64,000 nt of DNA. Source: Halanaerobacter jeridensis. GTDB taxonomy: Bacteria > Bacillota > Halanaerobiia > Halobacteroidales > Halobacteroidaceae. Positions 1,256 through 55,179 of this stretch are shown here, in pieces. Made by a program: the position numbers and the translations under genes. The notes under the pieces were generated by a model. It saw only the letters and a list, made by a program, of their open reading frames with translations. It was not told the DNA's origin and made no database searches. The stretch's first letter is position 1; every line of letters starts with the position of its first letter. The stretch spans positions 1 through 64,000 of the forward strand of contig NZ_JAFBDQ010000005.1 of NCBI RefSeq assembly GCF_016908315.1, written 5' to 3'.

Positions 1256-1505
1256 ATTATTCCTCCTCGCATAAGTTTATAATTTGAATTTTTTATAAAC
1301 TATACTCATATGTAAGTAATACTATATATAAGTATATTTTCCTGCATATATAGATAACTTTTTTATTTTCTTATTTTTAATAATAACAAAAATATTAATG
1401 AATTTACAGTTAAAATTATATTTTAAAAATAAAATTTTTATTAGAACCATTAATAAAAATATTCAAAACTACATAAAAAACAAAACTTCTAAAATAGGAT
1501 TTCGG

Positions 1506-1641
1506 ATAACGTCCCTGCGATTCGCGACGTCTCGCTACTGCTCCTATACTTTGCCTATTCTCCTAAATTTCATAAGTCAGTGCTTAACCCTGCACTATCC
1601 TCTAGACCTAGATGTCGCTAATCGCATGTTATATGATGGAG
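1506..1641. repeat. attC-like structured repeat, copy 1
   Basis: ATAACGTCCCTGCGATTCGCGACGTCT...AGATGTCGCTAATCGCATGTTAT. Ends are inverted repeats. The variable stem segment TGCGATT/AATCGCA is compensatory relative to other copies. Confidence 0.65.
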
Positions 1642-2526
1642 CGACCCGGAACCACAAAGATAAAATTCTGCTTTTGCTATTATCTTAGCTAAAAATCATT
1701 TCTTACGCATCACAAAGCAGTTCTATTCCTAGCCCAAAACTATTTACCTGAGGGAAAGGGGGCGAAACTTCTATCTTCCTAATAAGTGAATCTTTTCTCT
1801 CAATTATGTAATTCTTGCTAATATGTATAAACCCTTCATAAAATAATCCAATTTTCAAAAAGATAAAAATGGGTTTTCAACTTTCACATTCAAAATGAAA
1901 TTAAGGAGTTAGCTAATACAATTTTGCCATGCTATTCCAAGTTTTTTATCGTCTATCACAATGCTCTTTACTAACAAATTAAAAAGCTCTCCATTTAGCC
2001 TAACTCCTGTCCAGCACCGCACTGGTTTTCCTAACGAAAAGACTAGCCTAATAATTCCTAATCAAGGATAAAGAAAGGTTTTCTTCTGCCCCCTTTCCCT
2101 TTTCCAATTTTCTCTGCAAGATAGAAGTTGACTACATCAATCTAGCCATGCTATACCACAGATTATTTAATAACTCTTATGCTCTTTATTCTGCATTGAA
2201 AATTTATAAGTAGTCACACTTCTATCCTAAGAATAATCCAAATAAATAAACTTGCACAATGATAAAGAGGTTAGGAAATGTTATAAAAATATTGCTGAAG
2301 CTTTTTTTGAATTGAATCTTTTACCTGAGGTTTTAATGAAAGATTTTTAACCCTAATTTGTTTTCTTTTTAAATAAGTAACTAAAAAAGCTCTATTATTT
2401 TCCCTAATTTGCTATTAAAAATCTTAAACCTATAAAAAAATCACTATTTCCTAACCTTCCCTCGAAAATAGTGATCTCTTACTGGTTGGATTCTATAACT
2501 GAAAATCAATATCTTAGCTCTTTCAT

Positions 2527-2653
2527 ATAACGTCCCGCAGCTTCGCGACGTCCCATCAATGCTCTATAACCTAATCTAATGCAACCTTAATTTCATAAGT
2601 CAGTCCTAACCTCATTTATACTCTACAATTGGATGTCGCTAAGCTGCTGTTAT
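2527..2653. repeat. attC-like structured repeat, copy 2 (divergent centre)
   Basis: ATAACGTCCCGCAGCTTCGCGACGTCC...GGATGTCGCTAAGCTGCTGTTAT. Stem GCAGCTT/AAGCTGC and GTCC/GGAT co-vary. Central loop shares 'atttcataagtcagt' with copies 1, 3, 4 and 5. Confidence 0.65.
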
Positions 2654-2679
2654 GCGAAGTGCTAAATCTCAGATAACAA

Positions 2680-4140
2680 CTATATATCACTTGAAAAATA
2701 ATTATCAATGATTTTCCGTAATTTCTTTACTCCCTTCTCTTTGGCTTTATTTCGAATTTCTTCTTTGGAAAAATAATTTATTTGATATTTATTAGTGCTT
2801 TGAGCGCGTTCTTTCAAATAATCTTCTGCTTCTTTTTCAAAACCACCAGTAGACCATAACTCAAAAATGAGCTCTTTATTTCTATGTTCATCTTCTTGAA
2901 AAGTCCAACTTCTTATTTTAGGAATATTATCTGTCACCCATTTTTTAGCAAACCCCTTTCCTATTGGGGCTTTCTTTCCCTTGCATTCAACAATCCTTAA
3001 TCTATCGGGATTATCATAAGCAAGAACATCAATTTCTCTTCTTTCCCCACTATCTTTATCAAGAACTACCTCATTGATTTTAATATATATAGATGATTGA
3101 GAATAATAATATCCTACAGCCAATTCAAAAAGTGCTCCTCTTAAATTAATAGACGCTCCTCTTAAATCAGATAATTTATCAAATAAATCAAAATATTTAT
3201 CAGGATTTTTACTAATAACTGCAGAAGCATTTTCGATTACATTTACTAATGACTTCAATACTTCAGTATATTGGTTATCAAATAATTCATTAACAAATCC
3301 AATAAATATTCCTCGAGATTTAAGCAACTGAAAAGCTTCCTTCTCTAAATCTTCTACTATAATAATAGGGATAAAAGAAGAAACATTATGATTCTGTTTG
3401 ATAATATCAATTTTATTTAAAAAATATTCAACATGCTCTTCTAATACTTCTTTTCCCAGTAAAATATCTGCCACAATAAATCCTGGTGAATCTTCATTTC
3501 TTAAATTAAGAATATAAGATGGAGCTGTAAAACCCCACTGAAATTTATAAAATTCCGCATTATTAGATAACTTTTCTGCATCATTATAAGAAGTGAAATT
3601 TATTTTTTTCGCCCAATCTTCAAAATTAGAAATAGTTAGTTCTTTTGCTAACTCAATTGCTTTAAATCTGGTATGAGTTGAACTAACTTCTATTAATGAA
3701 TTCAACTGATATATATCATCAGTATATTCAACTAAAACATCTAATTGTAGCAAATCATCAATAATAGAGCTAGCCGGTTTATGTCCTTTTAACTTTTTAA
3801 TCGGAGAACAAGTATAACTAGGTAATTGATTCATATCTATAAATCCATCATGAAATAATACTGCTTGTATAAAAAAATGATACGCTTTAGCATGAGTTTC
3901 AAAACTGTTTACTAAATTTTGATAAAAAAGTTGAGTCTTAAAATGATCACTTAAATAAATAAATTGTTGGTTATTATTAAAAGAAATAGTCTTCATTTTT
4001 TTCACAGGAGAATTTGCCCGGGAAATAGCTTTTCTAGCTGCATCATTAGTTATTTCATGTTTTTCTTCTAATTTTTTAGCTAATACTCCGGAAACCATTG
4101 GACCATCATCTTGAAGAATCTTTTCTATACGTGTTGTCAT
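2680..4140 (-). CDS. PD-(D/E)xK nuclease-domain protein with N-terminal wHTH-like region (candidate defence cassette)
   Basis: 486 aa. C-terminal ...EIDVLAYD...RIVECKGKK... fits the D...(D/E)xK restriction-endonuclease-fold motif. Single-gene cassette between repeat copies 3 and 2. Confidence 0.5.
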   Translation of the reverse strand: MTTRIEKILQDDGPMVSGVLAKKLEEKHEITNDAARKAISRANSPVKKMKTISFNNNQQFIYLSDHFKTQLFYQNLVNSFETHAKAYHFFIQAVLFHDGFIDMNQLPSYTCSPIKKLKGHKPASSIIDDLLQLDVLVEYTDDIYQLNSLIEVSSTHTRFKAIELAKELTISNFEDWAKKINFTSYNDAEKLSNNAEFYKFQWGFTAPSYILNLRNEDSPGFIVADILLGKEVLEEHVEYFLNKIDIIKQNHNVSSFIPIIIVEDLEKEAFQLLKSRGIFIGFVNELFDNQYTEVLKSLVNVIENASAVISKNPDKYFDLFDKLSDLRGASINLRGALFELAVGYYYSQSSIYIKINEVVLDKDSGERREIDVLAYDNPDRLRIVECKGKKAPIGKGFAKKWVTDNIPKIRSWTFQEDEHRNKELIFELWSTGGFEKEAEDYLKERAQSTNKYQINYFSKEEIRNKAKEKGVKKLRKIIDNYFSSDI

Positions 4141-4320
4141 TTTATGTCACACCTCACTATTTATAAATAAACAATCAATCAAGCGATCAATTAATTTTTT
4201 TAGTTTTTCAATACCGACAATTCAATAGTTCATAGAGCTGGAAAAAAATACAATGTCACACTTTCCTTTTCAAACTAAAAAATTGTCACTAAAATATGTA
4301 ACTAAGATTTAGCATTTCGC

Positions 4321-4449
4321 ATAACGTCCCTGGGCTTCGCGACGTCTAGGCACTGCTCCTATACTTTTGCCTATGCTCCTAAATTTCATAAGTCAGTGCT
4401 GCAACCCTGCCATATCCTCTGTGCCTAGATGTCGCTAAGCCCATGTTAT
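4321..4449. repeat. attC-like structured repeat, copy 3
   Basis: ATAACGTCCCTGGGCTTCGCGACGTCTAGG...CCTAGATGTCGCTAAGCCCATGTTAT. Confidence 0.65.
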
Positions 4450-4489
4450 CTGACGTAGCCATTGTCGAATAAAAACTACTGTACTTACA

Positions 4490-6280
4490 TCAAAAATTTT
4501 GGTTATAATTAAGATTAGGTAAGGCAATTAAACAACTTGCTTTTTTATGATATCCATAGCGATTAAGCCCCATATTAGCAAATAAAAACACATCCTTCTT
4601 GGCTCTGGTAATCCCAACATAAAAAATGCTAAGCACTTCTTCAAATTCTTCTCTTAAAGAAGACAAAAACTGGAATTTACAACATTTATCAAACTCTTCC
4701 TTCCCTTGTTTAGCACTACACAACTTGCAAAGTCCTTTTGAAGTAGGAAATGAGTATGCTGTAACTCTAGGAATGTATACATAATCCCATTCTAATCCTT
4801 TGGCACCATGTATTGTAGTTATTGTTATCCTTTCATCAATTTCATTCATTAAATGCTTTAAAGATTCATTTTCTAACACAAAAGAAATCTTTTCAAACTT
4901 TTTATTTTTTGATATATTTTCTGCTTTAGTTTTTTGAAACAATTTTTTTAATAACCTTAACAAGGAATTATATATATACATTGTATCATCTTCATATATA
5001 TCTTCAGTAAGCAATTCCTCCATTCTATCAACAACTCTACTTAGTACACGTTTTGCAATAGATTGATTGATACCACTTTCTTCCAAAAACACATCTAAAG
5101 CTTTCTCATGAAAAGCTACATATTCTCTGTCAGTATCATTGAATAATCCATTAAAATAGGAAATAGATTGTTCTTCTAATTTTTCAATTACCTCATTAGT
5201 ACAATAACTAGCTCGACACAAAATAGATACATCATCAGAATCACTAATCTTATCTTTAATATGTTCTACAATAAACTCGGCTTCTTTATGATTGCTCTTA
5301 AAAAATTTAAAATTCATTTCAGCTTCTTTATCAAAAGAATCCATCTCACTATAATTTAAAAAGATACTACGAATATAACTGTCTAATTTTTTCATCTTTT
5401 CATTATCATCAAATCTATGATTTGTTTTGAATCTCATTTCTTCCATATTAAATTCCTCAGCCATATGGTCAAACAAATCAGGAATAGCTCCAATAAAGCC
5501 ATAAATTTTCTGAATTTTATCTCCCATTAAAATAATTTCGTTTTCTCCCATTAATTTTGTAAGCAATCTATATGATAAATAATTAGTATCTTGAAATTCA
5601 TCAACAATAATCATTTTATAATATTGCTGATAAAAATTTCTAATTGATTTCTTATTTAATAAATAATAGGAAAAAAGCAATAATCCATTAAATGTAATAA
5701 CTTCATTAGGGATTAATATTTCGTTTAAAATCTCAAAATAATTGCTTTCTAACTTTTCAACATTATCAATATTTTCTTTTTCAAACCCATTAAAATTTTT
5801 AATACATTTGTCATACTCTGATAAAATGTCCATTTCCGAAGATGATAGATAATCCTTTAGCACTGCTGAATAATCGGATACTATTCTAAAAGAATCCATA
5901 GCCCCCAAATTTTTATTTAATAAATATCCATGTTTTTTTAACAAAATTCTTGCTAAATTATGATAATTTGCTACATCAAGTTTCTTGGATAAATCAACAT
6001 TTTCATCATCTAATAATTCAGGTAATAATTCATTAGTATCTTTTTTAATTTTATTAGCTGCATTTACGCTAAATGTAAGGGCTAATATTTTTTTATGATG
6101 TATTGTCGGATCTGTAACTATTTTGTAAGCAATTTTACTAATCATTGTTTTGGTTTTCCCATATCCAGCTGGAGCAGTTACAATTATTCTTTGTTTTTGA
6201 CTGAAAATAAAATCAAGTTGCTCTTCATCTTTTCCATGAATATCCTCAATTGATTTAGAAATAGCTTTTTTATTCTTCAT
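4490..6280 (-). CDS. gajB: Gabija GajB, UvrD/PcrA/Rep-like SF1 helicase
   Basis: 596 aa. Walker A TAPAGYGKTKT, motif II MIIVDEFQDTN, motif V/VI TTIHGAKGLEWDYVYIP. Overlaps upstream gajA by 11 nt. Confidence 0.75.
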   Translation of the reverse strand: MKNKKAISKSIEDIHGKDEEQLDFIFSQKQRIIVTAPAGYGKTKTMISKIAYKIVTDPTIHHKKILALTFSVNAANKIKKDTNELLPELLDDENVDLSKKLDVANYHNLARILLKKHGYLLNKNLGAMDSFRIVSDYSAVLKDYLSSSEMDILSEYDKCIKNFNGFEKENIDNVEKLESNYFEILNEILIPNEVITFNGLLLFSYYLLNKKSIRNFYQQYYKMIIVDEFQDTNYLSYRLLTKLMGENEIILMGDKIQKIYGFIGAIPDLFDHMAEEFNMEEMRFKTNHRFDDNEKMKKLDSYIRSIFLNYSEMDSFDKEAEMNFKFFKSNHKEAEFIVEHIKDKISDSDDVSILCRASYCTNEVIEKLEEQSISYFNGLFNDTDREYVAFHEKALDVFLEESGINQSIAKRVLSRVVDRMEELLTEDIYEDDTMYIYNSLLRLLKKLFQKTKAENISKNKKFEKISFVLENESLKHLMNEIDERITITTIHGAKGLEWDYVYIPRVTAYSFPTSKGLCKLCSAKQGKEEFDKCCKFQFLSSLREEFEEVLSIFYVGITRAKKDVFLFANMGLNRYGYHKKASCLIALPNLNYNQNF

Positions 6281-7997
6281 TATCTTCTACTCCATTCATT
6301 AATTCTTCTATAATATCTTTAAAAACTTCAGGCACATTAGTAACATATTTTGCTAAAAGAGAACCATTTAAAGCATTTTTTTTATTCCTTAATTGTTTTA
6401 TTTCTTCTTCTTGATAATTTAGCATAATTCTATTTTTAACTTCCTCAGGAACCTCATATTCTTCAGGAGCTTCTATAAAAAGTCTGGGACTAAATTCTTC
6501 CATCTCCTTTTTTAAATAATTTATAAAAGGAGTAATTTTATCTGCTTCCTTTTGATAAAGCAAATAATCATTAAAATCAAAACTATTATATATTTCTGCT
6601 TCAAAATCTATTTCATTTGTGAAAAATATTCCATCTTCATTTTTATATTTTTCTTCTTGATCTTTATCAATTATAGCTATAGCTCTAATATCATATGCAT
6701 CATAAAGTTTCATACATCTAAGAACACTACCAGCCCCATCAAGTTTTATAATTCCAATACTTTCTTCATCAATATCATATCCTATTCTTTCAATAAGTAC
6801 TGGTAAAGCTCCGAATTCTGTATCACCTTCTACAAGAACTACAGCTTTACTAAACATAGCTTCTTTAATATACATAAAACTTCTTATTAAGTGTTTATGA
6901 GTTTTATCATTAAAATCTATATTTCTACCACACTTTACATTAACTTTATCATTAACCTTATATAATCTAGTAATTTGTTTATAGTTATTTAATAATATAT
7001 TAGGAGAATGTGTAACAACAAACACTTGTCCAATCAAACCATCTATTTCAAATAATTCTTCGAGAAGTTTGATAAAGTCTTCATTCTTATTATCAATAAT
7101 TCTTTTTATACCTTTAATTAATGCTCTTTGTCTATATGGATGTTGGTGTATTTCAGGTTCATCTAAAGCAATTACAATTGGTAAATATCTATTTCCCTCA
7201 TCATCATTAATTAAAATATTATTAAATTTTTCTTCTTTCTTATTAGTTTTTAATTTTATTAACAAATCTAAAATATATAAAAATATATTAAATGAATATT
7301 GTAAGCCATCACCAAGTTCATTTAAACTTTTACCTGTATTGTCTCCTACCTCTAAAATTCGACTAACAATATTCTGCTCATCATCATCCACAAATGCTTC
7401 AATTACTTCTCCTTTTAACCCATTTATTTTATATATTTTTTTATTTAAATCATCAACAATTTCATTAACATCACTAATATTAATTAAATCTAAATTTTCT
7501 ATATCTCTTTCCTCCAAAATGTTTTCAACTAAGTAATTTAAAACTTTTCCAGTTCCAGTGTTTTTTGAAAAATCTATTTCTTTGCTAGGATTCCTTAATG
7601 ACGAATAATAAATAAAATTGATTTTTTTAATAGTTATTGGATTTATATATGTATCTGCCGGAGATGCATGTTTATATTCAATTCGACTATAAATATCTTC
7701 TTGAGTTGCTATAATAGTTAAACTATATTCATCATCAATATCAAAATTATTTTCAAAAAAACCCAATTCATCTTTATTGTAACTTATAGTGAATTTAACA
7801 GATATCTCCTTCTTTGTATCATCAAAATGTTCTTCATAGAATTTACCCTTACGTAATAAACAATTAAGCAACTCCATTACATTAGTTTTACCAACATTAT
7901 TTTCTCCAACTAAAAAATTAATTTCCTCATCAAATTTAAAATTTAGTCCGCTTAAATTCTTGAAATTTTTTACTTCTTTTATTTCACTTACAAACAT
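6270..7997 (-). CDS. gajA: Gabija GajA, OLD-family ATPase with C-terminal Toprim nuclease
   Basis: 575 aa. ABC-type Walker A LVGENNVGKTNVMELL, D-loop/Walker B VIALDEPEIHQHP, and Toprim AVVLVEGDTEFGALPVL. Class-2 OLD gene immediately upstream of a UvrD-like helicase equals Gabija architecture. Confidence 0.8.
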   Translation of the reverse strand: MFVSEIKEVKNFKNLSGLNFKFDEEINFLVGENNVGKTNVMELLNCLLRKGKFYEEHFDDTKKEISVKFTISYNKDELGFFENNFDIDDEYSLTIIATQEDIYSRIEYKHASPADTYINPITIKKINFIYYSSLRNPSKEIDFSKNTGTGKVLNYLVENILEERDIENLDLINISDVNEIVDDLNKKIYKINGLKGEVIEAFVDDDEQNIVSRILEVGDNTGKSLNELGDGLQYSFNIFLYILDLLIKLKTNKKEEKFNNILINDDEGNRYLPIVIALDEPEIHQHPYRQRALIKGIKRIIDNKNEDFIKLLEELFEIDGLIGQVFVVTHSPNILLNNYKQITRLYKVNDKVNVKCGRNIDFNDKTHKHLIRSFMYIKEAMFSKAVVLVEGDTEFGALPVLIERIGYDIDEESIGIIKLDGAGSVLRCMKLYDAYDIRAIAIIDKDQEEKYKNEDGIFFTNEIDFEAEIYNSFDFNDYLLYQKEADKITPFINYLKKEMEEFSPRLFIEAPEEYEVPEEVKNRIMLNYQEEEIKQLRNKKNALNGSLLAKYVTNVPEVFKDIIEELMNGVEDNEE

Positions 7998-8132
7998 TTT
8001 TTTTGCCCCCGTTTCAATTTAAGTAATTAATCTTCTAATTTAAATAAAATTAGTTCATCGATTAAAATCAAGAAAAATTATATTTGATCTTAATCTCTTT
8101 GGATAACCTCTTTTTCAAAATGGCTATGTCAG

Positions 8133-8259
8133 ATAACGTCCCTGGGGTTCGCGACGTCTCGGGACTGCTCCTCTATTCTGCTCATCATCCTAAATTTCAT
8201 AAGTCAGTGCTACAACCCTGCCCTATCCTCTTACCTAGATGTCGCTAAGCTCATGTTAT
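8133..8259. repeat. attC-like structured repeat, copy 4
   Basis: ATAACGTCCCTGGGGTTCGCGACGTCT...AGATGTCGCTAAGCTCATGTTAT. Confidence 0.65.
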
Positions 8260-8425
8260 GTGATGTAGTTAGCAAAAGATATTTTCTATATTCTCCAAAA
8301 CCTATGCAAACACTTCTAAACTATGCTAAACCTATTCTACTCACCTTTGCTAATGAGACTTTTCTTTCACAATCCTTCCCAAACAGCTCTAATTAGAGTT
8401 CTCTTACAACTATAATTCTATAACT

Positions 8426-8671
8426 TTAAAAAAAGAATAAACCGAAAGAGATAGAGTAGATATCCTTCCCTAAAATGGTTTCTAAATGTGTTTTTAACTT
8501 CACTATACTCAAAAATTTGCCTCTAAACCTGAGCATTTTCGCCGAAAAATTATACCAACGCCCAAAATATAGCCTAGGCATCGCTACTGGACTAACTTCA
8601 AACAAATATACTTCCACATAACTTATATAAGCCTTAACTCTATATTTCTTTTCCTTAATATAAAAAAGCAT
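8426..8671 (-). CDS. small hypothetical ORF in the short cassette between repeat copies 4 and 5
   Basis: 81-aa ORF with a weak RBS. The cassette may instead be non-coding. Confidence 0.2.
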   Translation of the reverse strand: MLFYIKEKKYRVKAYISYVEVYLFEVSPVAMPRLYFGRWYNFSAKMLRFRGKFLSIVKLKTHLETILGKDIYSISFGLFFF

Positions 8672-8753
8672 CTACTCTATCTCTTGACCGGTTATAGAAT
8701 TCTGCAGCATTTTCTATTCTAATACAAACAAACCCATTTGCTAACTATGTCAC

Positions 8754-8882
8754 ATAACGTCCCTGGGCTTCGCGACGTCTCGGGACTGCTCCTATACTTT
8801 TGCTTATCCTCATAAATTTCATAAGTCAGTGCTGCAACCCTGCCCTATCCTCTATACCTAGATGTCGCTAAGCCCATGTTAT
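8754..8882. repeat. attC-like structured repeat, copy 5
   Basis: ATAACGTCCCTGGGCTTCGCGACGTCT...AGATGTCGCTAAGCCCATGTTAT. Nearly identical to copy 3. Confidence 0.65.
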
Positions 8883-8923
8883 CCGACGCCCGGCTTCTAT
8901 AAAAAATATATCCCTCTTTTAAC

Positions 8924-9781
8924 CTAGTAACTTTTTAATATATCTAAATATTCACTTTTTGTTTCATTATCATATAAACCCTTCGCTTCATTTAGAGTTT
9001 CTATAGCCCAGTCTACATATTTTTGATTTACTTTTTTACTATTTTCTATTTTTTCTATAAATCTTTCTATTTTATTTCTCAATTTATTGTTTACTGATTT
9101 TAATTTTTCTTCCAATTGTTCATTCTCTTCTGCTAGTTCTTCATTCTCTTCTGCTAGTTCTTCATTCTCTTGCTCTAATTGTTCTTCAATTTCTTTTAAC
9201 ATTTCTAATCTTTGTTTTAACCGTTGTGTTTCCTTCTTTTCTTGTTGTGTTTCCTTCTTTTCTTGTTGTGTTTCCTTCTTTTCTTGTTGTGTTTCCTTCT
9301 TTTCTTGTTGTAATTTCTTATCAGACTGCTCAACTGCCTCATCTAATGCACTTAACTCTTCATCACTCCATTCAGTACTTTCCTTACTACTCTCACCTTC
9401 ATTTAATATTTCTTTTATTTTGCTTTTAACCCAACTAGGAGCTTCTATAAAATCTTTTCTCAATCTTTTATTCTCTGATTTCAACAACTCTTTATAAGCT
9501 AAATCTAAATTAGAAAGATTATCTTTAGTCAATATATCTATTTCAATTAAATTTTCTGCGAATTCTCCTGGTTTCATAAATTTATCTTCTAATTTGCTTA
9601 TTTCTTCTAATTCGTCATATAATTTAGTTTTAGCCTTATTAGTACTTAATTCAGCTTGTTTTAGTTTCTCTTCTGTTAAACCATAATCCTCATTTAACTT
9701 AGTAGTTACATCATCTGCTAAAACATTCACTGTCAAAACCAATAGCAATACAATCAATAATAAAACACTTAACTTCTTCAT
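8924..9781 (-). CDS. secreted coiled-coil protein with tandem heptad-like repeats
   Basis: Signal peptide MKKLSVLLLIVLLLVLTVNVLA. QQEKKET x4 encoded by 21-bp tandem repeats at 9226-9310, and ENEELAEENEELAEENEQLEE. Ends with TAG. Confidence 0.6.
   Translation of the reverse strand: MKKLSVLLLIVLLLVLTVNVLADDVTTKLNEDYGLTEEKLKQAELSTNKAKTKLYDELEEISKLEDKFMKPGEFAENLIEIDILTKDNLSNLDLAYKELLKSENKRLRKDFIEAPSWVKSKIKEILNEGESSKESTEWSDEELSALDEAVEQSDKKLQQEKKETQQEKKETQQEKKETQQEKKETQRLKQRLEMLKEIEEQLEQENEELAEENEELAEENEQLEEKLKSVNNKLRNKIERFIEKIENSKKVNQKYVDWAIETLNEAKGLYDNETKSEYLDILKSY
9226..9310. repeat. 21-bp tandem repeat (x4) inside the coiled-coil protein gene
   Basis: tgtgtttccttcttttcttgt repeated four times in a row. 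Confidence 0.85.
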
Positions 9782-9864
9782 AATCTGCCTCCCCTAAATT
9801 ATGGTTTTTAATGTTTTTAATATGTATTTCTTTCAATAAAAATAGCAGCTAAGCCGGGTTTCGG

Positions 9865-9990
9865 ATAACGTCCCTAGGGTTCGCGACGTCTAGCTAAACC
9901 CTCCTATAACTTGTCCATCCTCTAAAACTCAATATTCAATTCCTAACCTTCCCTAACCTCTCAACCTAGATGTCGCTAACCCTATGTTAG
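9865..9990. repeat. attC-like structured repeat, copy 6 (different central region)
   Basis: ATAACGTCCCTAGGGTTCGCGACGTCTAG...CTAGATGTCGCTAACCCTATGTTAG. Stem TAGGGTT/AACCCTA. Confidence 0.65.
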
Positions 9991-10014
9991 ACGATGTTTG
10001 CTTGATAAAAATCA

Positions 10015-11046
10015 TTACCTTCTCTCTATTTCTTCAATTATTAATTTTGGGAATTTATATTCAATTACAGCAATAGCTTCTTTTAAAAGCGGATAAGAAA
10101 AATCTCCTTTTGAACTAGTAATCATTGACATCCAATGAGTTGGATAATATCGAACTAACATACCAATCGCATATGAAATAATGTAAATAGTTAATAAAGA
10201 AGAAAAATTTAAATTATCAGCTAAAGGGGCAACAGCAAATATATTATTTTTTCTATCATTTTTTACAAACGGAACTCTATTATAAAACTCTTCATTAGAA
10301 GAATGAATTATTCTAAAAGATATATTTTCTAAATTACCTGCAAAATTATGTTTTTCCTTCTTTCTCGTTTTAATGTCTTTTGGTAAACCAAAGTCATCTC
10401 TAACTAATTCCTTATTAGGTAACCCAATACTAGTTTCTAACACTGCAATATCTGTTTGTTCAGATAAACAAAAAACAATTGCATTATAACATTTAGAATA
10501 ATCATCAAAAGTATTCTCATATATATTTTGTAATTCCGGAATCCTCGCTAATATTTCTTTAATAGTAATTAAATTATTACTATCTTCTTTACCCCCATAT
10601 TGTTTTATTTTAGTTCGATTTGGATATGGAGCTATATATATTGAACTTCTCTCAATATTTTCTGTAACCTCCCATAACTTAGAAAATGTGCCAGAAGTAA
10701 TCTCAACATTCAAATTAGGTACTTCTTCTATTCCATCTGAAAGTTTTTGGGTCCAATTTTTCACTCTTAATCCATGAGATGGTTTAAGGCTAGTTACTCT
10801 TGCAAAAGGATCTAAAAATAAAATTAATCCACGACAAAATGCAACTACTCCGTAATAAAACAATAGAGGAGATACAACATTATCAGCCTGTTTTGCACTG
10901 GAAAAATATTCTCTTCCTTGAGTAATATGAGAAACTATTTCCTCTGCTTTTCCAGCCGAAAGTTCTCTATCATGCTTCTCTTCATAAAATTTTGAAACTA
11001 AATCTTTGCTTTCATACAAAGATATCTTAGACCAAACATTTTTCAT
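10015..11046 (-). CDS. YaaC-like family protein
   Basis: 343 aa. Pattern W..IS.YES.DLV.KF...H...QGREYF..A.....V.PLLFYYG.V and C-terminal PLLKEAI.VIE.KFPKLII match my recollection of B. subtilis YaaC-family proteins. Confidence 0.5.
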   Translation of the reverse strand: MKNVWSKISLYESKDLVSKFYEEKHDRELSAGKAEEIVSHITQGREYFSSAKQADNVVSPLLFYYGVVAFCRGLILFLDPFARVTSLKPSHGLRVKNWTQKLSDGIEEVPNLNVEITSGTFSKLWEVTENIERSSIYIAPYPNRTKIKQYGGKEDSNNLITIKEILARIPELQNIYENTFDDYSKCYNAIVFCLSEQTDIAVLETSIGLPNKELVRDDFGLPKDIKTRKKEKHNFAGNLENISFRIIHSSNEEFYNRVPFVKNDRKNNIFAVAPLADNLNFSSLLTIYIISYAIGMLVRYYPTHWMSMITSSKGDFSYPLLKEAIAVIEYKFPKLIIEEIERR

Positions 11047-11069
11047 TATTTACCTCCCTTTTTCCCTTG

Positions 11070-11528
11070 TCACAAATTTACTTTTTCTAACTGTGTAGGC
11101 CAAGCTCCTTGACCATTTCCTCCTTTAAAATAAACTCTATAATTTTTTCCTATAGAAGAAACAACATGTTTAGTAATATACTTCTTTTCTTCACCATCAA
11201 TTTCAACTTTACTTTTCTTTTTAACTTTGTCTCCAGGCTTTAAATTTAATTCTTCAATTGCTTGCTTATTATTTTCTTTTAATTTATCCTCAATTTTTGC
11301 TGAGGCAACTCTCAACGAATTGTTTTTAAGATCTAAACCCAATTCTTCTCCAAATTCAATTTGTTTTTCAGTAGACTCATTAAATTCCATATTAGGATCA
11401 ATTGCTGGTTCAACTGCATCATAAATCCTTGCACTTGCTACATTACGAGTATCATTAGAAATATCAACTTCTAATTTAATTGCTATATTCTTTTGAAATG
11501 GTGTTGGTTTTTTATGAACATCATTCAC
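11070..11528 (-). CDS. hypothetical protein, co-cassette partner of the YaaC-like gene
   Basis: 152 aa with internal duplication (RNVASARIYDAVE / LRVASAKIEDKLKE). Same cassette as 10015-11046. Confidence 0.45.
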   Translation of the reverse strand: MNDVHKKPTPFQKNIAIKLEVDISNDTRNVASARIYDAVEPAIDPNMEFNESTEKQIEFGEELGLDLKNNSLRVASAKIEDKLKENNKQAIEELNLKPGDKVKKKSKVEIDGEEKKYITKHVVSSIGKNYRVYFKGGNGQGAWPTQLEKVNL

Positions 11529-11577
11529 AAATAAATTTCCTCCTTTAAAAAATATAATATAACAAAAGCAAATGTCG

Positions 11578-11705
11578 TCTAACGTCCCTGGGGTTCGCGA
11601 CGTCTAGCTCAACCCTCTTATAACTTGTCCTTCCTATAAAACTTTCATATGTAATCTCTACCTTCACCCATCCTCCTAGCCTAGATGTCGCTAACCCCAT
11701 GTTAT
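11578..11705. repeat. attC-like structured repeat, copy 7 (same subfamily as copy 6)
   Basis: CTAACGTCCCTGGGGTTCGCGACGTCTAG...CTAGATGTCGCTAACCCCATGTTAT. Stem TGGGGTT/AACCCCA. Confidence 0.65.
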
Positions 11706-11955
11706 GTGATGCTTCTGATCGGTTAATAAAAAATAATCCCCAATAAAATTAAAACCCTCATTAAAATTTAGCATAATAATAAATACTCATATCAAACAAC
11801 TATAATTCGAATTATTTTATACTAATATTATATTCAACCTTACTTTTACTCCTCAATTTGCAACTCAACTCCTGGTATATAAACATTAATCCTTTCTATT
11901 TTAAATCTAATTCTATTTTCTAATTCTTTTTTCACAATATCTTGAATTGTTTGCC

Positions 11956-12648
11956 CTACTTTATAAACTTTTTTCTAGAATCAACAATTATATTTAAGTT
12001 AACAGTAATTCTTTCACCTTGTCTTTCAATCTCAACACCTTTAGATAAATCTTTTAAACCTAATATATCCTTAAGCGCATTCAAAAAACTACCTCCATTA
12101 GTATCTACTACCCCATCTATCTCTCTAACAACTATTCCCACTAACTCTTCTATCTTGTTATATTTTTCATCTTCAATACTAATTGAATTCAATTCAATAT
12201 TATTTTCATTTCCTAATTTATATTTAGGAAATAATCTATTACTTGGATCATCTGGTTCAGTATAATCAAATTTTTTTATATTAACTTTAACCTTGTTAAC
12301 TTCAATTCCTGTTTTATGTTTCAATCTATATTTTACAGTATCTCTTATTTCTTGGGCTACTATATTACTTTGCATTTCATCTTTTATTATTGCATTAATT
12401 TCAATAATAAATCCGTCATCAATTATTCTATATTCTATTCCCTTAGATAAATTATTTATTCCTAATAATACACGAATATCATCAAAAAAACTTCCCTGCG
12501 TATCAATTACTCCATCTATTTCTCTAACAATAACCCCAATTAAAATTTTTATTACTTCTTTAGAAATCCTAATCTTTCCTTTGTTATTTTTTTGTTCAAT
12601 ATCAATATCCTTAGATTTTTTCATAATTGTTTTGCTCTCCTTTTGCAA
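11956..12648 (-). CDS. Asp23/Gls24-family protein with two Asp23 domains; 3' end apparently frameshifted
   Basis: Two copies of VIKILIGVIVREIDGV.DT...LSKGIE. The conserved C-terminal continuation VYKVGQTIQDIVKKELENRIRFKIERINVYIPGVELQIEE* is in another frame at 11846-11958, after an A6 run. Confidence 0.65.
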   Translation of the reverse strand: MQKESKTIMKKSKDIDIEQKNNKGKIRISKEVIKILIGVIVREIDGVIDTQGSFFDDIRVLLGINNLSKGIEYRIIDDGFIIEINAIIKDEMQSNIVAQEIRDTVKYRLKHKTGIEVNKVKVNIKKFDYTEPDDPSNRLFPKYKLGNENNIELNSISIEDEKYNKIEELVGIVVREIDGVVDTNGGSFLNALKDILGLKDLSKGVEIERQGERITVNLNIIVDSRKKFIK

Positions 12649-12691
12649 TATAGATAAAAAGTTTTATAAGAAGTTTCACATAACTTATTTT

Positions 12692-12753
12692 TTAACGACA
12701 CAAAAATCATAATTTATAGTTGTTCCTTATATTTACGATGATTGTGTCGTTAA
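12692..12753 (-). promoter_or_regulatory. perfect hairpin immediately 3' of the recombinase gene (terminator and/or attI-like site)
   Basis: TTAACGACACAAAAATCAT...ATGATTGTGTCGTTAA. It contains GTCG/CGAC cores that resemble the conserved GCGACGTC/GATGTCGC boxes of the attC-like repeats. Confidence 0.35.
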
Positions 12754-12760
12754 AATCAGA

Positions 12761-13801
12761 TTAGTTGATTAAATTATCTAACGGACTTTCTATGTTTGCA
12801 ATATCTCTTTTGCTGACATGAGTATATATTTCAGTAGTAGTAGAACTCTTATGTCCTAATAATTTTTGGATGTATCGTAAATCAGTTCCTTGCTCTAATA
12901 AATGTGTTGCAAAAGAATGTCTTAAAGTATGTACAGAAACATCTTTAGTAATATTAGCTTTTCTACAGGCTTTTTTGAATATTCTTTGTACTGATCTTGT
13001 AGTTAAGTGTTCTCCTTCTTTGCCTCCAGGAAACAACCTCTTTTCGGGTTGATATAATTGATGATACATTTTTATCTGTTTCAGACAAGATTCTGATAAG
13101 ATCGTATAGCGATCTTTTCTCCCCTTCCCTTGATTAATTTTAATTAGCATTCTATCACTATTAATATCATCCATTTTTAGTTTAACAACTTCACTAACCC
13201 TTAATCCAGCAGAATAAACTACATACAAAATTGTTTTATGTTTGGGGTTATCTAGACTATCTAAAATCTTCGCTACTTCTTTTTTACTTAATACTTCCGG
13301 TAACTTTTTTTCTTTTTGTGGTCGTGATAAAACAACTGAAATATCTTTATTATCCAATACTTCCCGGGCCAAGAACTTAATAGCACTAATCCCCTGGTTA
13401 ACAAATGAATGTGATAAATCTTGGTCTAATAAATCCAACAAATAATCCTTAATCTCAGCATCAGTCACTCGTGATAACTTCTTATTAATAAATCGTGCAA
13501 ACTGCCTAATATGACTCATATAAACTTTTTCCGTCTTTTCACTATAACCTTCTAAATTTAACTGATTTTTTAGTTCATTAATTACTAGTTCATTTTCTAA
13601 AGCACTGGAAATTATAATTCTTTCATTAACAAATTTCTCTTTTAACTGTTCTAAAATATCATAATCATAAGGTACTAACCATGCTCTAGCTTTAGGGGCC
13701 CATTCCCGCTTATTAATTTCTTTAATTTTTTTAATTTTTCTTTCCGAATAATCAAATTTAACAGCTAGTTGTCCTTCTAACTTTTCAATTCTTAATGTCA
13801 T
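12761..13801 (-). CDS. tyrosine-type site-specific recombinase (XerD-like core, about 100-aa N-terminal extension); putative cassette-array integrase
   Basis: 346 aa. Box II HTLRHSFATHLLEQGTDLRYIQKLLGHKSSTTTEIYTHV, R at LRVSE, catalytic Y in EIYTHV, C-terminal SPLDNL. Only about 58 aa between KDR and HTLRHS, so no IntI-type additional domain is evident. Confidence 0.85.
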   Translation of the reverse strand: MTLRIEKLEGQLAVKFDYSERKIKKIKEINKREWAPKARAWLVPYDYDILEQLKEKFVNERIIISSALENELVINELKNQLNLEGYSEKTEKVYMSHIRQFARFINKKLSRVTDAEIKDYLLDLLDQDLSHSFVNQGISAIKFLAREVLDNKDISVVLSRPQKEKKLPEVLSKKEVAKILDSLDNPKHKTILYVVYSAGLRVSEVVKLKMDDINSDRMLIKINQGKGRKDRYTILSESCLKQIKMYHQLYQPEKRLFPGGKEGEHLTTRSVQRIFKKACRKANITKDVSVHTLRHSFATHLLEQGTDLRYIQKLLGHKSSTTTEIYTHVSKRDIANIESPLDNLIN

Positions 13802-18034: not shown

Positions 18035-21000
18035 TTAATTTTTTAAACTACTACCAATCAACTTTAAATTTTCTCCAATGTTATTTAATTCATTGACCAC
18101 TTGGATTACTTTTTGCCCGTCTTGATTGGACTTTTTCTTACGGTAGATTTCTTTTATTTCCTGCCATCTTTCTTCTTTCTCTGCTGTCATCCGTCCAGTA
18201 ATTTCATGAAACTTTAACAAACTAGCTTCAGCATGAGTTGCTAAGGTCTGAGCATCATTAATATAACTATTAACTATCAACTTATCCAATTCATCTTCAT
18301 TCATAATCGGGACTACTTTTTCTACAATTTTATTCATATTCCGGTAAGACCCCTGCAGTTTAAATGGTGGTTCTGTTCTATAATCATCATTTTGCGAAGC
18401 AGATTTGATATATTCCATATTAACTCTTAGCACTTCATCTCTAATCTGGAGACAACTTTCTAATACCTTTTGGGCTTCTTCTAACTCTTCTTCAGTATAA
18501 CTACCCTGCAAATTCATTTCTTCTTGCGTCTTAGTTGTAATATCCTCTAATAGTTGATAGATATCTGTTTGATTTTTCATATAAATATTATTTAAATATT
18601 GATTAGACGTGATAGCATTTTCAATATAACTAAGTTTAAAAGCCGATTCATTTTCTCTTAACATATCACCTAAATTATAGACATCAGCCCGATTGGCTAA
18701 CATATCAGGAATCTTAAATTTATCTCCACTTTCAGTATAAGGGTTACCGCCCATTACTACAGCTACCTTTTTACCTCTAAATTGATAAGTTTTACTTTGG
18801 CCTTGATAGACACCATCTATCTTTCTCTGACCGTCGCATAAAGAGATAAACTTCTGTAAAAACTCAGGGTTAGAATGCTGGATATCATCTAAATAAATCA
18901 TCACATTATTACCAATCTCCAGGGCCAAATTCAACTTCGCGAGTTCCTCCCTCGCACTAGCATTTTCAGCTTCCGCCGGATCAAGTGAGGTTACCCCATG
19001 CCCAATTGTCGGACAATTGACTTTAACCAGCATCATACTTAAGCGGTTAGCCACATATTCCACCAAAGTCGTCTTCCCATAACCCGGCGGAGAAATCATC
19101 AACAGCATTCCCATGTTATCAGTCCGCTTATCTTTACCAGCCGTTCCAATCTGTTTAGCTAGATTATCACCAATTAACGGCAGATAAACTTTATCGATTA
19201 ATTTATTGCGGACAAAAGAAGTCAGCACACTCGGCTTTAAATCCTCAAAATTAAACCTACTTTTAAGTTCCGCAATTTTAGCAAACTTTAACTGCTGAAA
19301 CTCCTGATACTGGGGCACAATATTGTTTTTAAAATTATCTAACTTAGCTAAAAAATCCGTTAAGCTAATTTGATACTGCCCATTATCAAGCTGAGGATGA
19401 GTACCTACTAAATTATCAATCTCAATTTGCGATTCTTCATTAATTATACGCCGCTGCTCATAATCATCAACCATTAAAATAGATAATACTTCATCAACAT
19501 AATGATTAAAACTCACTTCTTCTTCATGTAAATAAGACTGCAGCCATTCACTAATTAAAATATACTTTCCTTCCAAATCATCTGCTAATTTTTCCACTGA
19601 ACTATCAAAATCACTTTTAGCACTCTTAGCAATTAGAAAATCAGCAAACTGCTGGTGGATTTCTGCTGCTTCTTTACTAATTGCAAAAGCCTCATTTTGA
19701 CTTATTTCTTTGGCTAAATATTCTGCTGTTTTGTGATACTGACTACATTTAATCCATTCATTATCTGCTGTAAATGATTTGATTTCAGCCGCTAAGATAG
19801 GGATAAAACTAGCCACTAACTCCCGCTGCGAATACTTAGCTATGACATTAACTGTTTTTAATCTCCGCTGCAACTTTTCTTTTTTCTCTGATGCTAAACC
19901 AAACTCCCAAAACAAGTTTGCTACTGCTCTAACTTGAGGACTGTAAGCTGCTAATTCTAATTCACGGTATTTCTCTACTACTGCCTTTAGTATTTTTCGT
20001 CCATCATGATCGTGAACTCCAGTGGTATAATATTCATTAGAATGCTGCTGCATATAATCTTTAATGATTTTAGTTAAAGCCTGCTCATCTTTTTGATAGA
20101 GGTTATCTAATTGATTTTGCTCCTCATATTTTTTAAAGATATTATAGGCTAAAAACTCAGCTCGGTAAACTTCTTTATTTTCAGAAATTACTTCCTGCTC
20201 CCACACCTGCTCGTAAGCACTAAATTCTTCTTGTTCAATCGCTTCCCAAAAGTCAGTACCGGAAATGTGAAAATAAAAGCCGTCATCTTTACGCATTAAA
20301 CTTAACTCAGCTTCTTGATTATTAACTAAGAAATGATGATTGCCGAGCTTAATTGTATTCTCATCTAAAAATAATTCCTGCTTATCTTTTAACTGCTTGA
20401 TACTAGTTTCCCTTAACGATTTAAGTTTGTTTTCAATATCATCTGCTTTGGTGCTCGCTCCAAGGTCAATTAATTCTGCAATAATATCTCTTATCTTATC
20501 AACCATTGGACTAGTAGATAGTAGTTCATTAATCTCTGCTACTTCATCACAAGAATGAACCCGATTCTTTAAACTTTTAAAAATTCTATCCGCCGCATTA
20601 CCTAAAGAATCAATTTTTCGATTCTTCTGTTCCATTAGCTGCTGCTTTTTAGCTTCAAAAGTAGATACTATCTCTTCTCTTTTTTCAGTCAGTAGCACTA
20701 TAAACTCATCAAATTCAGAAAATTTACTCTCTAACTCATCAATTTGGATAATAATTTTAGACATATATGATTCAGTTTTCTCAACAGTAGTTGATAGTTC
20801 TAAATAATTAGCTACAGAATGAGTTAAAAGATTTAACTTAGAATAAAACTCAGCTTCTTTCTCCTGCGCACTTAAATTATCTATTTTGTTTTTGAGCTGT
20901 GACTTGTGCTGATTTAAATTAGAGAATAACGCCGAAATTTTATCAATAATCACTGAAGTTTTAGTCGCATCTTTGATCTTTAGATTATTAACTATATTAA

Positions 21001-22909: not shown

Positions 22910-22910
22910 C

Positions 22911-25959: not shown

Positions 25960-26400
25960 GTTTTTGTTTTTTCTGTTTTACTCTTCACTGATTATTATTT
26001 TTCTTGTTACTTTTTACTTGTTACTCTTTTCTTGTCACTGCTTTTTCTTGTTACTGCTTTACTCTTGCACTTGACTTTTATTTTGTGTCTCTTTACTGAT
26101 CACTGTTTTACTGTTTTTATGCTTTATTCTTGAATTTGACTTTTATCTTATCTCTTCACTGATTACTTGTTACTCATCACTGTTTTACTGTTGCACTTGA
26201 CTTTTATTTTGTGTCTCTTTACTGATCACTCATTACTCCTCACTTTTTTTTATCTCTTCACTGATTACTTATTATTGTTTTTCTATTTCACTGTCTTTTG
26301 TGTTTTTTACTGATTATTTGTTACTGATTACTCATCACTATTATTCTGCTTTACTCTTGTATTTGACTTTTATCTCTTCACTAGTCACTCATTACTAATT
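25960..26400. repeat. degenerate tandem/dispersed AT-rich repeat region
   Basis: Motifs TTGACTTTTAT, CTCTTCACTGATTACT, CTCATTACT, TTACTGATCACT. Units of about 45 nt recur at 26060-26110 and 26195-26240; shorter ones at 26140-26175 and 26370-26395. Relatives at 42000-42185 and 29455-29545. Confidence 0.7.
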
Positions 26401-27192
26401 ACTATTATTACCTTCGTATTTATTCAAACTAGCTGCCATTTTTCTCAAATTGACAATACTTAAATCTAATTCACTATCAGCATGTTGGGAAATTGTTTTT
26501 AACTTTGCTAATTTTATTTTCATATTATCTAAGTCTGTAATTGCTTGTTCATTAATTGAAAGATATTTATTAATTGCCTGCAATTCAGTTAAAATCATCT
26601 CTTTTTTCTCTTTTAATGAGTTAAGTTCATCTCCCATCTCTGCAGTTAACTCATCTTTAGTTTCTAGTAACTCAATTCTTGAATTAATATAATTAAGGTT
26701 AATATCCTCTATCGATTGATAAATATCTTTAACTTGGGCCAAATTATCTAAAATATTATAGTATACTTCTTCTGTGACCCTCATGAATTTTTGATAAGTA
26801 ATTCCGTTTTTATCTAATTTGATATCTAAAATATTCTTAAACTTTTCAAACTTTTCAATCACTCTTAATAATTGATTTAAAGCCAAACGAGCACTTTCCT
26901 GATAATGATTAGTATTTGTCAAATCACTAAATTGAGTCTTTAATTCAGCAATAAAGGAAATTATCTCCTGCTTATAAGAAACATTACCTGTTCGCATTTT
27001 ACTCTCATCTATATCTACTTTTAATTTTTCTTCTTTTTTATATCCATTGCTTAACGACAAATTTAGCACCTCCACTAATAAGGCACCTGCTAAAATCCCC
27101 CATCCAAACTGCTGCAGAGAGTCAACAAACAAAATGATTTCTACGCTCACTACAATTGGAACCAACTTTTGAATAAGCAATTTTTTAATCAA
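26395..27192 (-). CDS. hypothetical membrane plus coiled-coil protein
   Basis: 265 aa, two N-terminal TM helices then coiled coil. Function unknown. Confidence 0.4.
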   Translation of the reverse strand: MIKKLLIQKLVPIVVSVEIILFVDSLQQFGWGILAGALLVEVLNLSLSNGYKKEEKLKVDIDESKMRTGNVSYKQEIISFIAELKTQFSDLTNTNHYQESARLALNQLLRVIEKFEKFKNILDIKLDKNGITYQKFMRVTEEVYYNILDNLAQVKDIYQSIEDINLNYINSRIELLETKDELTAEMGDELNSLKEKKEMILTELQAINKYLSINEQAITDLDNMKIKLAKLKTISQHADSELDLSIVNLRKMAASLNKYEGNNSN

Positions 27193-29566: not shown

Positions 29567-29741
29567 TTTAAGAATACTTTGCCCAGGAGCAACTATTTTT
29601 ATTTGACCGCCAGTAGAACACATTAATTTAGAACCTTCCAATAAAGCAGACTGTTGACCAACTTTCACGTTTTCTTTCACCTTAGTCCATGGTGAGGGAA
29701 GACTAGGCGTACAAGAGCTTTCAGTAATTTTGCAATGACCT
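29567..29741 (-). pseudogene. C-terminal portion of the DUF4280 (PAAR-like) gene, displaced by the miniature IS element
   Basis: rc translation CKITESSCTPSLPSPWTKVKENVKVGQQSALLEGSKLMCSTGGQIKIVAPGQSILKE* matches my recollection of the DUF4280 C-terminal half. Confidence 0.5.
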
Positions 29742-44818: not shown

Positions 44819-44820
44819 AC

Positions 44821-55044: not shown

Positions 55045-55105
55045 ACAAGATTAGATTGTGTTAGCTATAATCCTATGCACAGTTTTTCTTATAAGCAGGA
55101 TTTTC
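54995..55105. promoter_or_regulatory. palindromic operator-like element upstream of LysM paralog 1
   Basis: Perfect 17-bp palindrome CTATGCATAATGCATAG (55017-55033) nested in a long imperfect inverted repeat cctgcttataa...ttataagcagg. Confidence 0.45.
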
Positions 55106-55179
55106 ACCACCTTTCTTTTTGTTTGAATTAAAATTTTTACTAAAAGTCAATTTATCTAACCTTTAATCAGGTCATAATC

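Follow-up and report, generated by a model that had tools for sequence, protein, structure and literature searches.

The locus analysed here raises the question of whether a complete two-gene Gabija anti-phage system can be carried as a single cassette of an integron-like array. It lies in a stretch of 64,000 nucleotides from the halophilic anaerobe Halanaerobacter jeridensis (contig NZ_JAFBDQ010000005.1, positions 1 to 64,000 of the forward strand), which is called the window in the following. A first-pass annotation of this DNA had proposed that the genes gajA and gajB overlap by 11 nt, encode a complete Gabija system, namely an OLD-family ABC ATPase with a Toprim domain and a UvrD-like helicase, and form a single cassette that is bounded by copies 4 and 3 of a repeat. 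The proposal was followed up by computation, which showed to which families the proteins belong, that their motifs are intact, where the cassette begins and ends, that the repeat hairpins covary, and that comparative junctions bear footprints of recombination. The analyses indicate that the Gabija operon was very probably taken up as a single discrete unit that can circularise. This cassette is the fifth of a sedentary, integron-like array on the H. jeridensis chromosome.

The gene pair consists of two features:
6270..7997, (-) strand: gajA, 575 aa, OLD-family ABC ATPase with Toprim nuclease (PADLOC, Pfam and AlphaFold2 (AF2) fold)
4490..6280, (-) strand: gajB, 596 aa, UvrD-like superfamily 1 (SF1) helicase (PADLOC, Pfam and motif alignment)

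The annotation would have been refuted by hidden Markov model searches that fail to place the two proteins in the GajA and GajB families, and the PADLOC models placed both of them at full length. GajA was assigned to PDLC00085 (E 6e-158), with residues 3-568 aligned to positions 3-576 of the 580-position profile, and GajB to PDLC00107 (E 9.7e-179), with residues 4-594 aligned to positions 3-585 of 587. The domain assignments were borne out as well, as Pfam detected AAA_15, AAA_21 and OLD-like_TOPRIM in GajA, and UvrD-helicase and UvrD_C in GajB. In an alignment of 24 GajA homologues, the ATPase residues G31, G36 and K37 of Walker A, Q99, D279 and E280 of Walker B and H330 were invariant, as were E390, G391, E394 and the DxD residues D444 and D446 of the Toprim part, while D392 of the Toprim part was nearly invariant (at least 90%). 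Alignment of GajB with Escherichia coli UvrD (3lfu) revealed that motifs I (GYGKT), II (DEFQD), III, V and VI all align. The genes are co-oriented with gajA first, and the gajA stop and the gajB start share the 11 nt from 6270 to 6280. Homologous gajA-gajB pairs elsewhere also overlap by 8-14 nt, and this conservation points to translational coupling. Because of the full-length family matches, the kept catalytic motifs and the conserved overlap, the Gabija pair is regarded as complete and apparently intact.

The AF2 model of GajA (predicted local distance difference test, pLDDT, 81.7) was compared with the PDB using Foldseek. The best matches were the Bacillus cereus GajA structures 8u7i_A, 8sm3_A and 8x5i (E 6e-17 to 8e-16, template modelling (TM) score about 0.5, 15% identity). 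GajA is 100% identical to an NCBI protein of H. jeridensis, and its next relatives are only 57-62% identical and stem from Bacillus, Petromonas and metagenome-assembled genomes (MAGs). In passages of PMC10568477, the combination of a class 2 OLD protein with a UvrD helicase is given as the defining Gabija architecture. By this architecture, by PADLOC subfamily and by fold the pair is a Gabija system, and it belongs to a distant, divergent subfamily; no tested member of the PDLC00085/PDLC00107 subfamily was found.

The second part of the question is whether the pair is one cassette. Three features define its boundaries:
4325..8136, (-) strand: Gabija cassette, 3,812 nt by the integron convention, from the TT of the upstream core to the G of its own core (repeat spacing 3812)
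4315..4457, (+) strand: attC-like site 3, the Gabija cassette's own site, 32 nt past the gajB stop (covariance model (CM) R1, 157.6 bits)
8127..8267, (+) strand: attC-like site 4, the Gabija cassette's upstream boundary, which belongs to the preceding cassette without an open reading frame (ORF) (CM R1, 149.9 bits)

Repeat copies 3 and 4 thus flank the gene pair as proposed, and no copy lies between gajA and gajB. The GC content of the cassette is 25.5%, compared to 34% for the rest of the window. The cassette 5' end, GGCTATGTCAG ((+) strand, 8122-8132), pairs at 10 of 11 positions with the outer flank CTGACGTAGCC of its own attC-like site (4450-4460), and at only 6 of 11 with the site that it abuts. 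The same offset was observed for six cassettes, the 11-nt 5' ends of which pair with their own sites at 8, 10, 10, 9, 9 and 9 of 11 positions and with the abutting sites at 2-6 of 11. The 5' end of the first cassette, on the attI side, pairs at 9 of 11 positions with the outer flank of site 7. Such own-site complementarity is the classical trace left by integron cassettes that can circularise, and it fixes the crossover at the core. The junction of the excised, circular Gabija cassette would then read ...CTACGTCAGATAAC...GGGAC-GTTAT-CTGACATAGCC.

Between the ORF stops and the downstream site there are 16-33 nt. Over 50 site-to-site intervals from the window and from other genomes, 93% of the ORF residues share one polarity relative to the site. 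The median length of these intervals is 1,353 bp and the longest measures 4,700 bp; only three of the 50 exceed the Gabija interval of 3,812 bp.

The remaining repeat copies of the window are:
1500..1640, (+) strand: attC-like site 1, closes the ORF-less cassette 7 (CM, 163.1 bits)
2521..2661, (+) strand: attC-like site 2, closes cassette 6 with a 486-aa ORF (CM, 136.8 bits)
8748..8890, (+) strand: attC-like site 5, closes cassette 3 with a 285-aa ORF (CM, 157.1 bits)
9859..9998, (+) strand: attC-like site 6, closes cassette 2 with a 152-aa ORF and a YaaC-like ORF (CM, 142 bits)
11573..11713, (+) strand: attC-like site 7, closes cassette 1 with the Asp23 gene 11956-12648 (CM, 136.3 bits)

All seven copies have one orientation and lie within the 10 kb adjoining a recombinase gene, and no copy was found in the 12-64 kb part of the window. 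The arm motifs occur seven times each, versus 0.0-0.1 expected from shuffled sequences. Each copy spans about 127 nt, with ATAAC at one end and GTTAT at the other, and folds into a long imperfect hairpin, which consists of a 6-bp terminal box, a one-sided bulge of 4 nt (TCCC), a 7-bp variable stem, a C/T mismatch and an 11-bp conserved stem. At site 4 the cores are found at 8133-8137 (ATAAC) and 8255-8259 (GTTAT), with the hairpin on the (+) strand. Site 3 has a DNA folding energy of -25.7 kcal/mol (z -5.6); it shares 92% identity with site 5 and about 90% with sites of a related contig, L029. Site 7 contains a perfect GTTAGAC. The stem covaries: in the seven window copies 95.8% of the cells are paired, with compensatory changes in six pairs (29-46% paired in slid registers), and in 52 copies from several genera 93.1% are paired (30-52% in slid registers), with 142 compensatory cells compared to 50 +/- 7 in shuffles. 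Two G.T wobbles are near-invariant on the strand that is antisense to the ORFs, which is mild evidence that the 'bottom' strand folds, as it does in integrons. An Rfam scan of 1-15 kb matched no family. Measured against the attC definition (an imperfect palindrome with R'' and R' cores), the ATAAC/GTTAT cores, the covarying stem, the one-sided bulge and the wobbles were seen, while the canonical layout of spacer and extrahelical bases was not reproduced.

The crossover was located by comparison with L029, a metagenome contig with a recombinase that is 87% identical to that of the window. Two features of the window are needed here:
12761..13801, (-) strand: array recombinase, a tyrosine recombinase of 346 aa, co-directional with the cassettes (Pfam Phage_int_SAM_4 and Phage_integrase)
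12676..12755, (-) strand: attI-like site, a hairpin (12755-12690) followed by the core GTTATGTGA (12684-12676), placed by the end of synteny and the junction alignment

The upstream flank, with the DUF3686 ATPase, a gene of the metallo-beta-lactamase fold and the recombinase, is syntenic at 83-89% in both sequences, and the homology ends at window position 12676. Beyond this point L029 has at least nine sites that carry a different cassette set. The fourth cassette of the window (8758->8124) is the first cassette in L029, cassette 7 (1641-2520) is present there at 84-87% in three tandem copies plus one more, and the Gabija, 486-aa, 285-aa, YaaC and Asp23 cassettes are absent from L029. At base resolution, the attI junction of the window reads ...TTGTGTCGTTAAAAAATAA-GTTATGTGA-AACTTC, the junction of L029 reads ...TTGTGTCGTTAATAAATAA-GTTATGTGAC-ATAGTTAGC, and the site 5 junction of the window reads ...GCCCAGGGAC-GTTATGTGAC-ATAGTTAGC. 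This three-way alignment puts the crossover within the shared GTTATGTGA, and the L029 junction is an attI x attC product. The attI hairpin has a 14-bp stem (TTTTAACGACACAA/TTGTGTCGTTAAAA) and an inner 7-bp stem (z -5.4); it lies between the recombinase stop and the core and is kept in L029. Its role could be to bind the recombinase or to terminate transcription.

Four independent lines of sequence evidence, namely polarity, own-site complementarity, comparative turnover and the base-level junction, thus argue that the units are real cassettes. Stem covariation, own-site flank pairing, cassette permutation and the base-resolved attI x attC junction all agree with the earlier proposal of a single two-gene cassette.

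Taken together, the following mechanism is proposed. The XerA/IntI-like tyrosine recombinase, encoded upstream of the cassettes, would act on the folded attC-like hairpins of about 127 nt with their ATAAC/GTTAT cores, and the hairpins would recombine with the attI-like site just 3' of the recombinase gene, so that cassettes would be inserted, excised and reordered. We infer the identity of the folding strand and the role of this recombinase as the performer. For B. cereus, passages of PMC8136825 and of bioRxiv 10.1101/2023.05.02.539174 describe that GajA nicks DNA and is nucleotide-sensing, and that GajB hydrolyses (d)A/(d)GTP and is triggered by DNA ends. By analogy, GajA and GajB of H. jeridensis would form a complex, GajA would nick or cleave DNA once the nucleotide levels drop in infection, and GajB would sense the resulting DNA ends and hydrolyse (d)ATP/(d)GTP, so that phage replication would be aborted. 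Anti-phage activity, the complex and expression at the fifth position are likewise presumed.

Several points weigh against this picture. With 3.8 kb the cassette is large for a classical integron cassette and would recombine poorly; a Vibrio study infers poor recombination between sites 4 kb apart. None of the six contexts of the closest Gabija homologues (L002, L003, L004, L035, L036 and L037; 57-63% identity) carries this attC type. The Gabija cassette was seen in one array only, and judging from these sequences recurrent mobility of it is not supported. Folding energies are similar for both strands and do not discriminate between them. In canonical integrons extrahelical bases are bound by an insert of IntI; the recombinase does not have this insert, so that single-strand recombination of folded sites is not guaranteed. 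The identity between this GajA and its characterised B. cereus counterpart is only about 15%, and the GajA chains of B. cereus VD045 were not reached in the PDB by phmmer (E <=10) or with the 24-sequence family profile (E <=0.01); the same searches returned other OLD nucleases (6p74, 6njv, 6nk8) and ABC heads (RecF and Rad50 chains). In the Foldseek comparison, almost the same scores were reached by the Thermus OLD protein 6p74 and by the retron Eco8 effector. A last point concerns expression, for which one further feature is relevant:
7998..8126, (-) strand: cassette 5' leader, 129 nt, with a GGGGG Shine-Dalgarno-like run before the ATG (read from the sequence)

The leader contains a TATAAT hexamer (8082-8077) with a poor -35 region, and a scan of its 129 nt revealed no convincing promoter, with no (-) strand site and no enrichment over shuffles. 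Because of this, the cassette may be silent at position 5. Promoter and terminator scans were generally not above shuffles, and no cassette promoter (Pc) could be assigned to the array. Defence, expression and recombination are all deduced.

The likeliest alternative concerns the function of the pair. The OLD and UvrD pair could be stored cargo that is silent or non-defensive, either a DNA-repair-like module or a decaying cassette, and would not currently protect the host against phages. The pair occupies the fifth cassette, at a distance of about 4.5 kb from attI, is not preceded by a clear promoter of its own and is far from every tested Gabija, and in Vibrio cholerae distal cassettes protected only after they had been moved to the first position behind an active promoter. 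Nevertheless, this explanation is judged unlikely: both ORFs are of full length with all catalytic motifs invariant, the coupling overlap is conserved in homologous pairs, the architecture is the one that the passages of PMC10568477 give as defining for Gabija, and recognised defence genes are abundant in sister arrays.

In a second alternative, the array would be a normal sedentary chromosomal integron, its recombinase a genuine though divergent IntI, and Gabija just another defence cassette. The ATAAC/GTTAT cores, the perfect GTTAGAC of site 7, the attI x attC junction and the own-site flank complementarity would be expected of such an integron. In addition, VchIntIA is the top PDB sequence match of the recombinase, the recombinase passes the NCBIfam model NF040815, named 'tyrosine recombinase/integron integrase', with 227.8 bits (cutoff 220), and co-directional integrases are known from Treponema integrons. 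The catalytic residues R201, H291, R294, H317 and Y326 are invariant in 28 recombinase homologues. The integron integrase model TIGR02249, however, was missed with 218 bits (cutoff 265), and its match was split in two pieces. Compared with VchIntIA (2a3v, IntI4), a segment of 61 aa (179-239) is replaced by 19 aa. In the catalytic core the recombinase is colinear with archaeal XerA (4a8e, 5hxy), and Foldseek ranked XerA 4a8e and IntI 2a3v about equally. The AlphaFold model (pLDDT 81.9) has an extra, confidently folded N-terminal beta/alpha domain (residues 1-64), and DSSP assigned no helix to residues 251-267, the segment that aligns to the IntI insert. The hairpin geometry, with a 4-nt one-sided bulge and long arms of conserved sequence, is also unlike that of canonical attC sites.

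Cury et al. define IntI by a specific region (intI_Cterm, near patch III) that they mapped in the V. cholerae IntI, and this region corresponds to the VchIntIA segment 179-239 that is reduced in the recombinase. According to them, recombinases that stand beside attC sites and do not have the IntI-specific region are not IntI, and such cases had fewer than three sites. In contrast, the window array has at least seven sites and L029 at least nine, with recombination footprints. An attI-like site, a crossover in the GTT core, 3' bases that belong to the next cassette and a co-oriented array with a content that varies between close relatives were all found. An intI divergent from the cassettes with a Pc in or near it was not found, the recombinase gene being on the same strand as the cassettes. 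An ordinary integron is thus held to be very improbable. Because the recombinase fails the test for the IntI-specific insert, 'integron-like' is the correct term for the array and strict 'integron' is not; the wording of the first-pass annotation was therefore apt.

Finally, it is extremely improbable that the repeats are dispersed intergenic palindromic elements (repetitive extragenic palindromic (REP), enterobacterial repetitive intergenic consensus (ERIC) or miniature inverted-repeat transposable element (MITE)-like) or terminators and that Gabija resides in a defence island devoid of cassettes: ERIC-like elements are likewise imperfect palindromes of about 127 nt, the copies follow ORF stops as terminators would, and the short-read assembly breaks at the repeats, as seen in a 3.7-kb Logan contig, but all seven copies lie in 10 kb by the recombinase and none in the remaining 52 kb of the window, exact arm matches occur at two loci only in a complete Natroniella genome, the orientation is strictly uniform, the flank complementarity is offset by exactly one cassette, the cassettes are permuted between relatives with the junction within the core, and the hairpins are not followed by a T-run, so that the REP, ERIC, MITE and terminator readings were rejected on clustering, polarity and junction evidence.

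It was also asked how widely such arrays occur. The conserved left arm of the sites was found as a run over 24 kb in Orenia metallireducens, as eight sites in 8 kb in Halanaerobium salsuginis and at two loci only in the complete genome of Natroniella sp., and further in Fuchsiella, Frackibacter, a Halobacteroidaceae MAG, Anaeromonas, Sporosalibacterium and a contig binned as Thermotogaceae. The pairing of recombinase and array recurs in Natroniella, Frackibacter and the Halobacteroidaceae and Thermotogaceae MAGs. Recombinase orthologues stand beside arrays in four further loci, of which L011, L012 and L022 encode full-length proteins that are 53-59% identical. The geometry is like that of the window in three of the four (L011, L022 and L025, the latter with only the C-terminal third present), while L012 has sites in mixed orientation; in L020 the recombinase copy is split. 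The recombinase protein family is large in Halanaerobiales and Clostridia. In L012 (Halobacteroidaceae MAG, 2060-4008) two sites of inverted orientation enclose the recombinase gene, which suggests that this segment was inverted by site x site recombination.

Sister arrays also carry defence genes. A full-length Avs2 (1,505 aa, E = 0) forms a single 4.7-kb cassette in L024 (1072-5586), and a Shedu SduA cassette is present in L029 (17144-18244). A pool of 51 cassette ORFs, which were not mapped to individual loci, contained matches to a type II methyltransferase, an EcoO109I-like endonuclease, UzuA, AbiTii and a RES toxin. Judging from Avs2 and Shedu, the array family repeatedly stores recognised defence systems. 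Metabolic genes are also among the sister-array cassettes. Three further observations were made on the cassette content: an Orenia interval (L023, 3583-4941) has a reverse transcriptase and matches resembling group II introns and homing endonucleases, a 399-aa ORF cassette occurs at least five times in the Natroniella arrays (L011/L015/L007), four of them at a period of 1,485 bp, and two members of the pooled ORF set match IS91/Y2-transposase models.

From these results a broader proposal can be made, to which even weight is given for and against: that the Gabija cassette marks an undescribed class of integron-like capture platform in Halanaerobiales and some Clostridia, with a recombinase intermediate between XerA and IntI (added N-terminal domain, no IntI insert), sequence-conserved hairpin sites of about 127-140 nt and a role as a defence 'biobank' for full-size systems (Gabija with 3.8 kb, Avs2 with 4.7 kb, and Shedu). 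If this were true, integron-type cassette capture would not be limited to IntI or to phyla with known integrons. Confirmation would extend cassette capture to further enzymes and taxa, open a new source for defence-gene discovery in anaerobic halophiles, and provide a natural experiment on the recognition of folded attC sites by an enzyme without the I2 insert of IntI.

The other cassettes of the window are less conspicuous. The Asp23 gene of cassette 1 was assigned by Pfam (Asp23), and cassette 2 (10015-11528) encodes a 152-aa ORF and a YaaC-like protein (PF14175), neither of which was matched by PADLOC. The 285-aa ORF of cassette 3 (8924-9781) contains five copies of a 21-nt tandem repeat (9202-9327) and has only a faint match, to a TrlF-family ATPase model. 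Substantial ORFs are missing from the cassettes 8268-8747 and 1641-2520 (an 81-aa ORF at most), and both cassettes are nevertheless 84-88% conserved in L029. Selection may maintain them as non-coding or small-peptide cassettes. The 486-aa ORF of cassette 6 had no Pfam or PADLOC match. Beyond site 1 lies a COMM-domain gene (674-1255), for which no recognisable attC of its own was found, and positions 1-534 on the (+) strand, opposite to the cassettes, encode the C-terminal part of an IS110-family transposase (TIPGLGYTLAAQFIAEIGHIDRF...) that runs off the left edge. The end of the array may have been disrupted by this insertion sequence. In classical integrons, attC sites are targets of IS1111-attC relatives.

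Positions 18035-24950, which directly precede the recombinase region, encode a 1,624-aa protein with DUF3686 ('ATPase involved in DNA repair') and DUF7902, and a 679-aa ORF, which could be a defence-like module; the part of the DUF3686 gene that is found in L029 (window 18035-22453) is syntenic there. In the remainder of the window, the intergenic gap 25999-26406 has dense TTACTGATTACT-like direct repeats of an iteron-like kind, two stretches of about 190 nt that lie 15 kb apart (29733-29923 and 44814-45005) are 93-96% identical, and positions 53836-57755 contain three tandem paralogous genes of about 400 aa each with common internal repeats of 126-221 nt.

Overall, the observation was confirmed and its interpretation is supported: the locus is best viewed as a divergent, full-size Gabija that forms a true cassette of an integron-like array of non-canonical type. 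It remains to compare the locus with known systems. With the Gabija system of B. cereus VD045 (8sm3, 8u7i, 8x5i) it shares the two-gene operon with gajA before gajB, the ABC ATPase and Toprim OLD nuclease, the UvrD-like helicase and the kept catalytic motifs, and that system is the top fold match. It differs in the low identity of about 15% and in the separate PADLOC subfamily, and the link between the two GajA proteins was found by fold only and not with phmmer or the family profile.

The recombinase shares Phage_int_SAM_4, the catalytic domain and about 30% identity with IntI (VchIntIA 2a3v), and the sites share with classical attC the AAC/GTT cores, the crossover in a GTT-containing core, an imperfect hairpin with conserved asymmetry, and bases past the crossover that belong to the next cassette. 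In contrast to IntI, the recombinase has no I2 insert, has an extra N-terminal domain of about 65 aa and is co-directional with the cassettes; in contrast to classical attC, the arms of the H. jeridensis type (GTCCC...TTCGCGACGTC) are conserved in sequence across genera, and a one-sided 4-nt bulge replaces the canonical spacer and extrahelical bases. XerA and the XerC-XerD/dif system are similar in the catalytic core, which is colinear with 4a8e and 5hxy, and in the score above the NF040815 cutoff. Xer, however, resolves chromosome dimers at one short dif site, while the H. jeridensis array has 127-nt hairpin sites that bound unrelated accessory genes, and a recombinase with an added domain. 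The Treponema integrons with an inverted integrase share the co-directionality of integrase and cassettes, but their enzymes are classed as IntI (Cury et al., who require intI_Cterm), and the H. jeridensis recombinase does not have that region. The array thus fails the defining IntI test, and yet it bears textbook footprints of cassette recombination.

Defence systems in integron cassettes are an established theme (Kieffer 2025, Darracq 2025, Getz 2025). Darracq et al. report 783 systems, mostly from Vibrio, which are small and 'streamlined', never have more than two components and include Shedu as the second most frequent. Gabija is not mentioned in two preprints on integron defence cassettes, and a literature search found nothing relevant on integrons in Halanaerobiales or Clostridia. 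IntegronFinder 2.0 lists one complete integron in all Firmicutes and a few clusters of attC sites lacking integron-integrases (CALINs), so that the H. jeridensis array departs from expectation also in its host, a lineage related to Firmicutes. Like the bacteriophage-resistance integron cassettes (BRiCs) of mobile integrons and the defence cassettes of Vibrio sedentary chromosomal integrons, the H. jeridensis cassette places a defence system between two attC-type sites in a co-oriented array with an adjoining tyrosine recombinase; the content varies between relatives, and Shedu, Abi and restriction-modification (RM)-type cassettes are also present in sister arrays. In contrast to those cassettes, the reported ones being small, Gabija is a full-size two-gene system of 3.8 kb and the sister-array Avs2 measures 4.7 kb, the host belongs to Halanaerobiales instead of Pseudomonadota, and the recombinase is not IntI. 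Defence cassettes in integrons are thus already known; the novelty lies in the platform, in the lineage of the host and in how large the captured system is.

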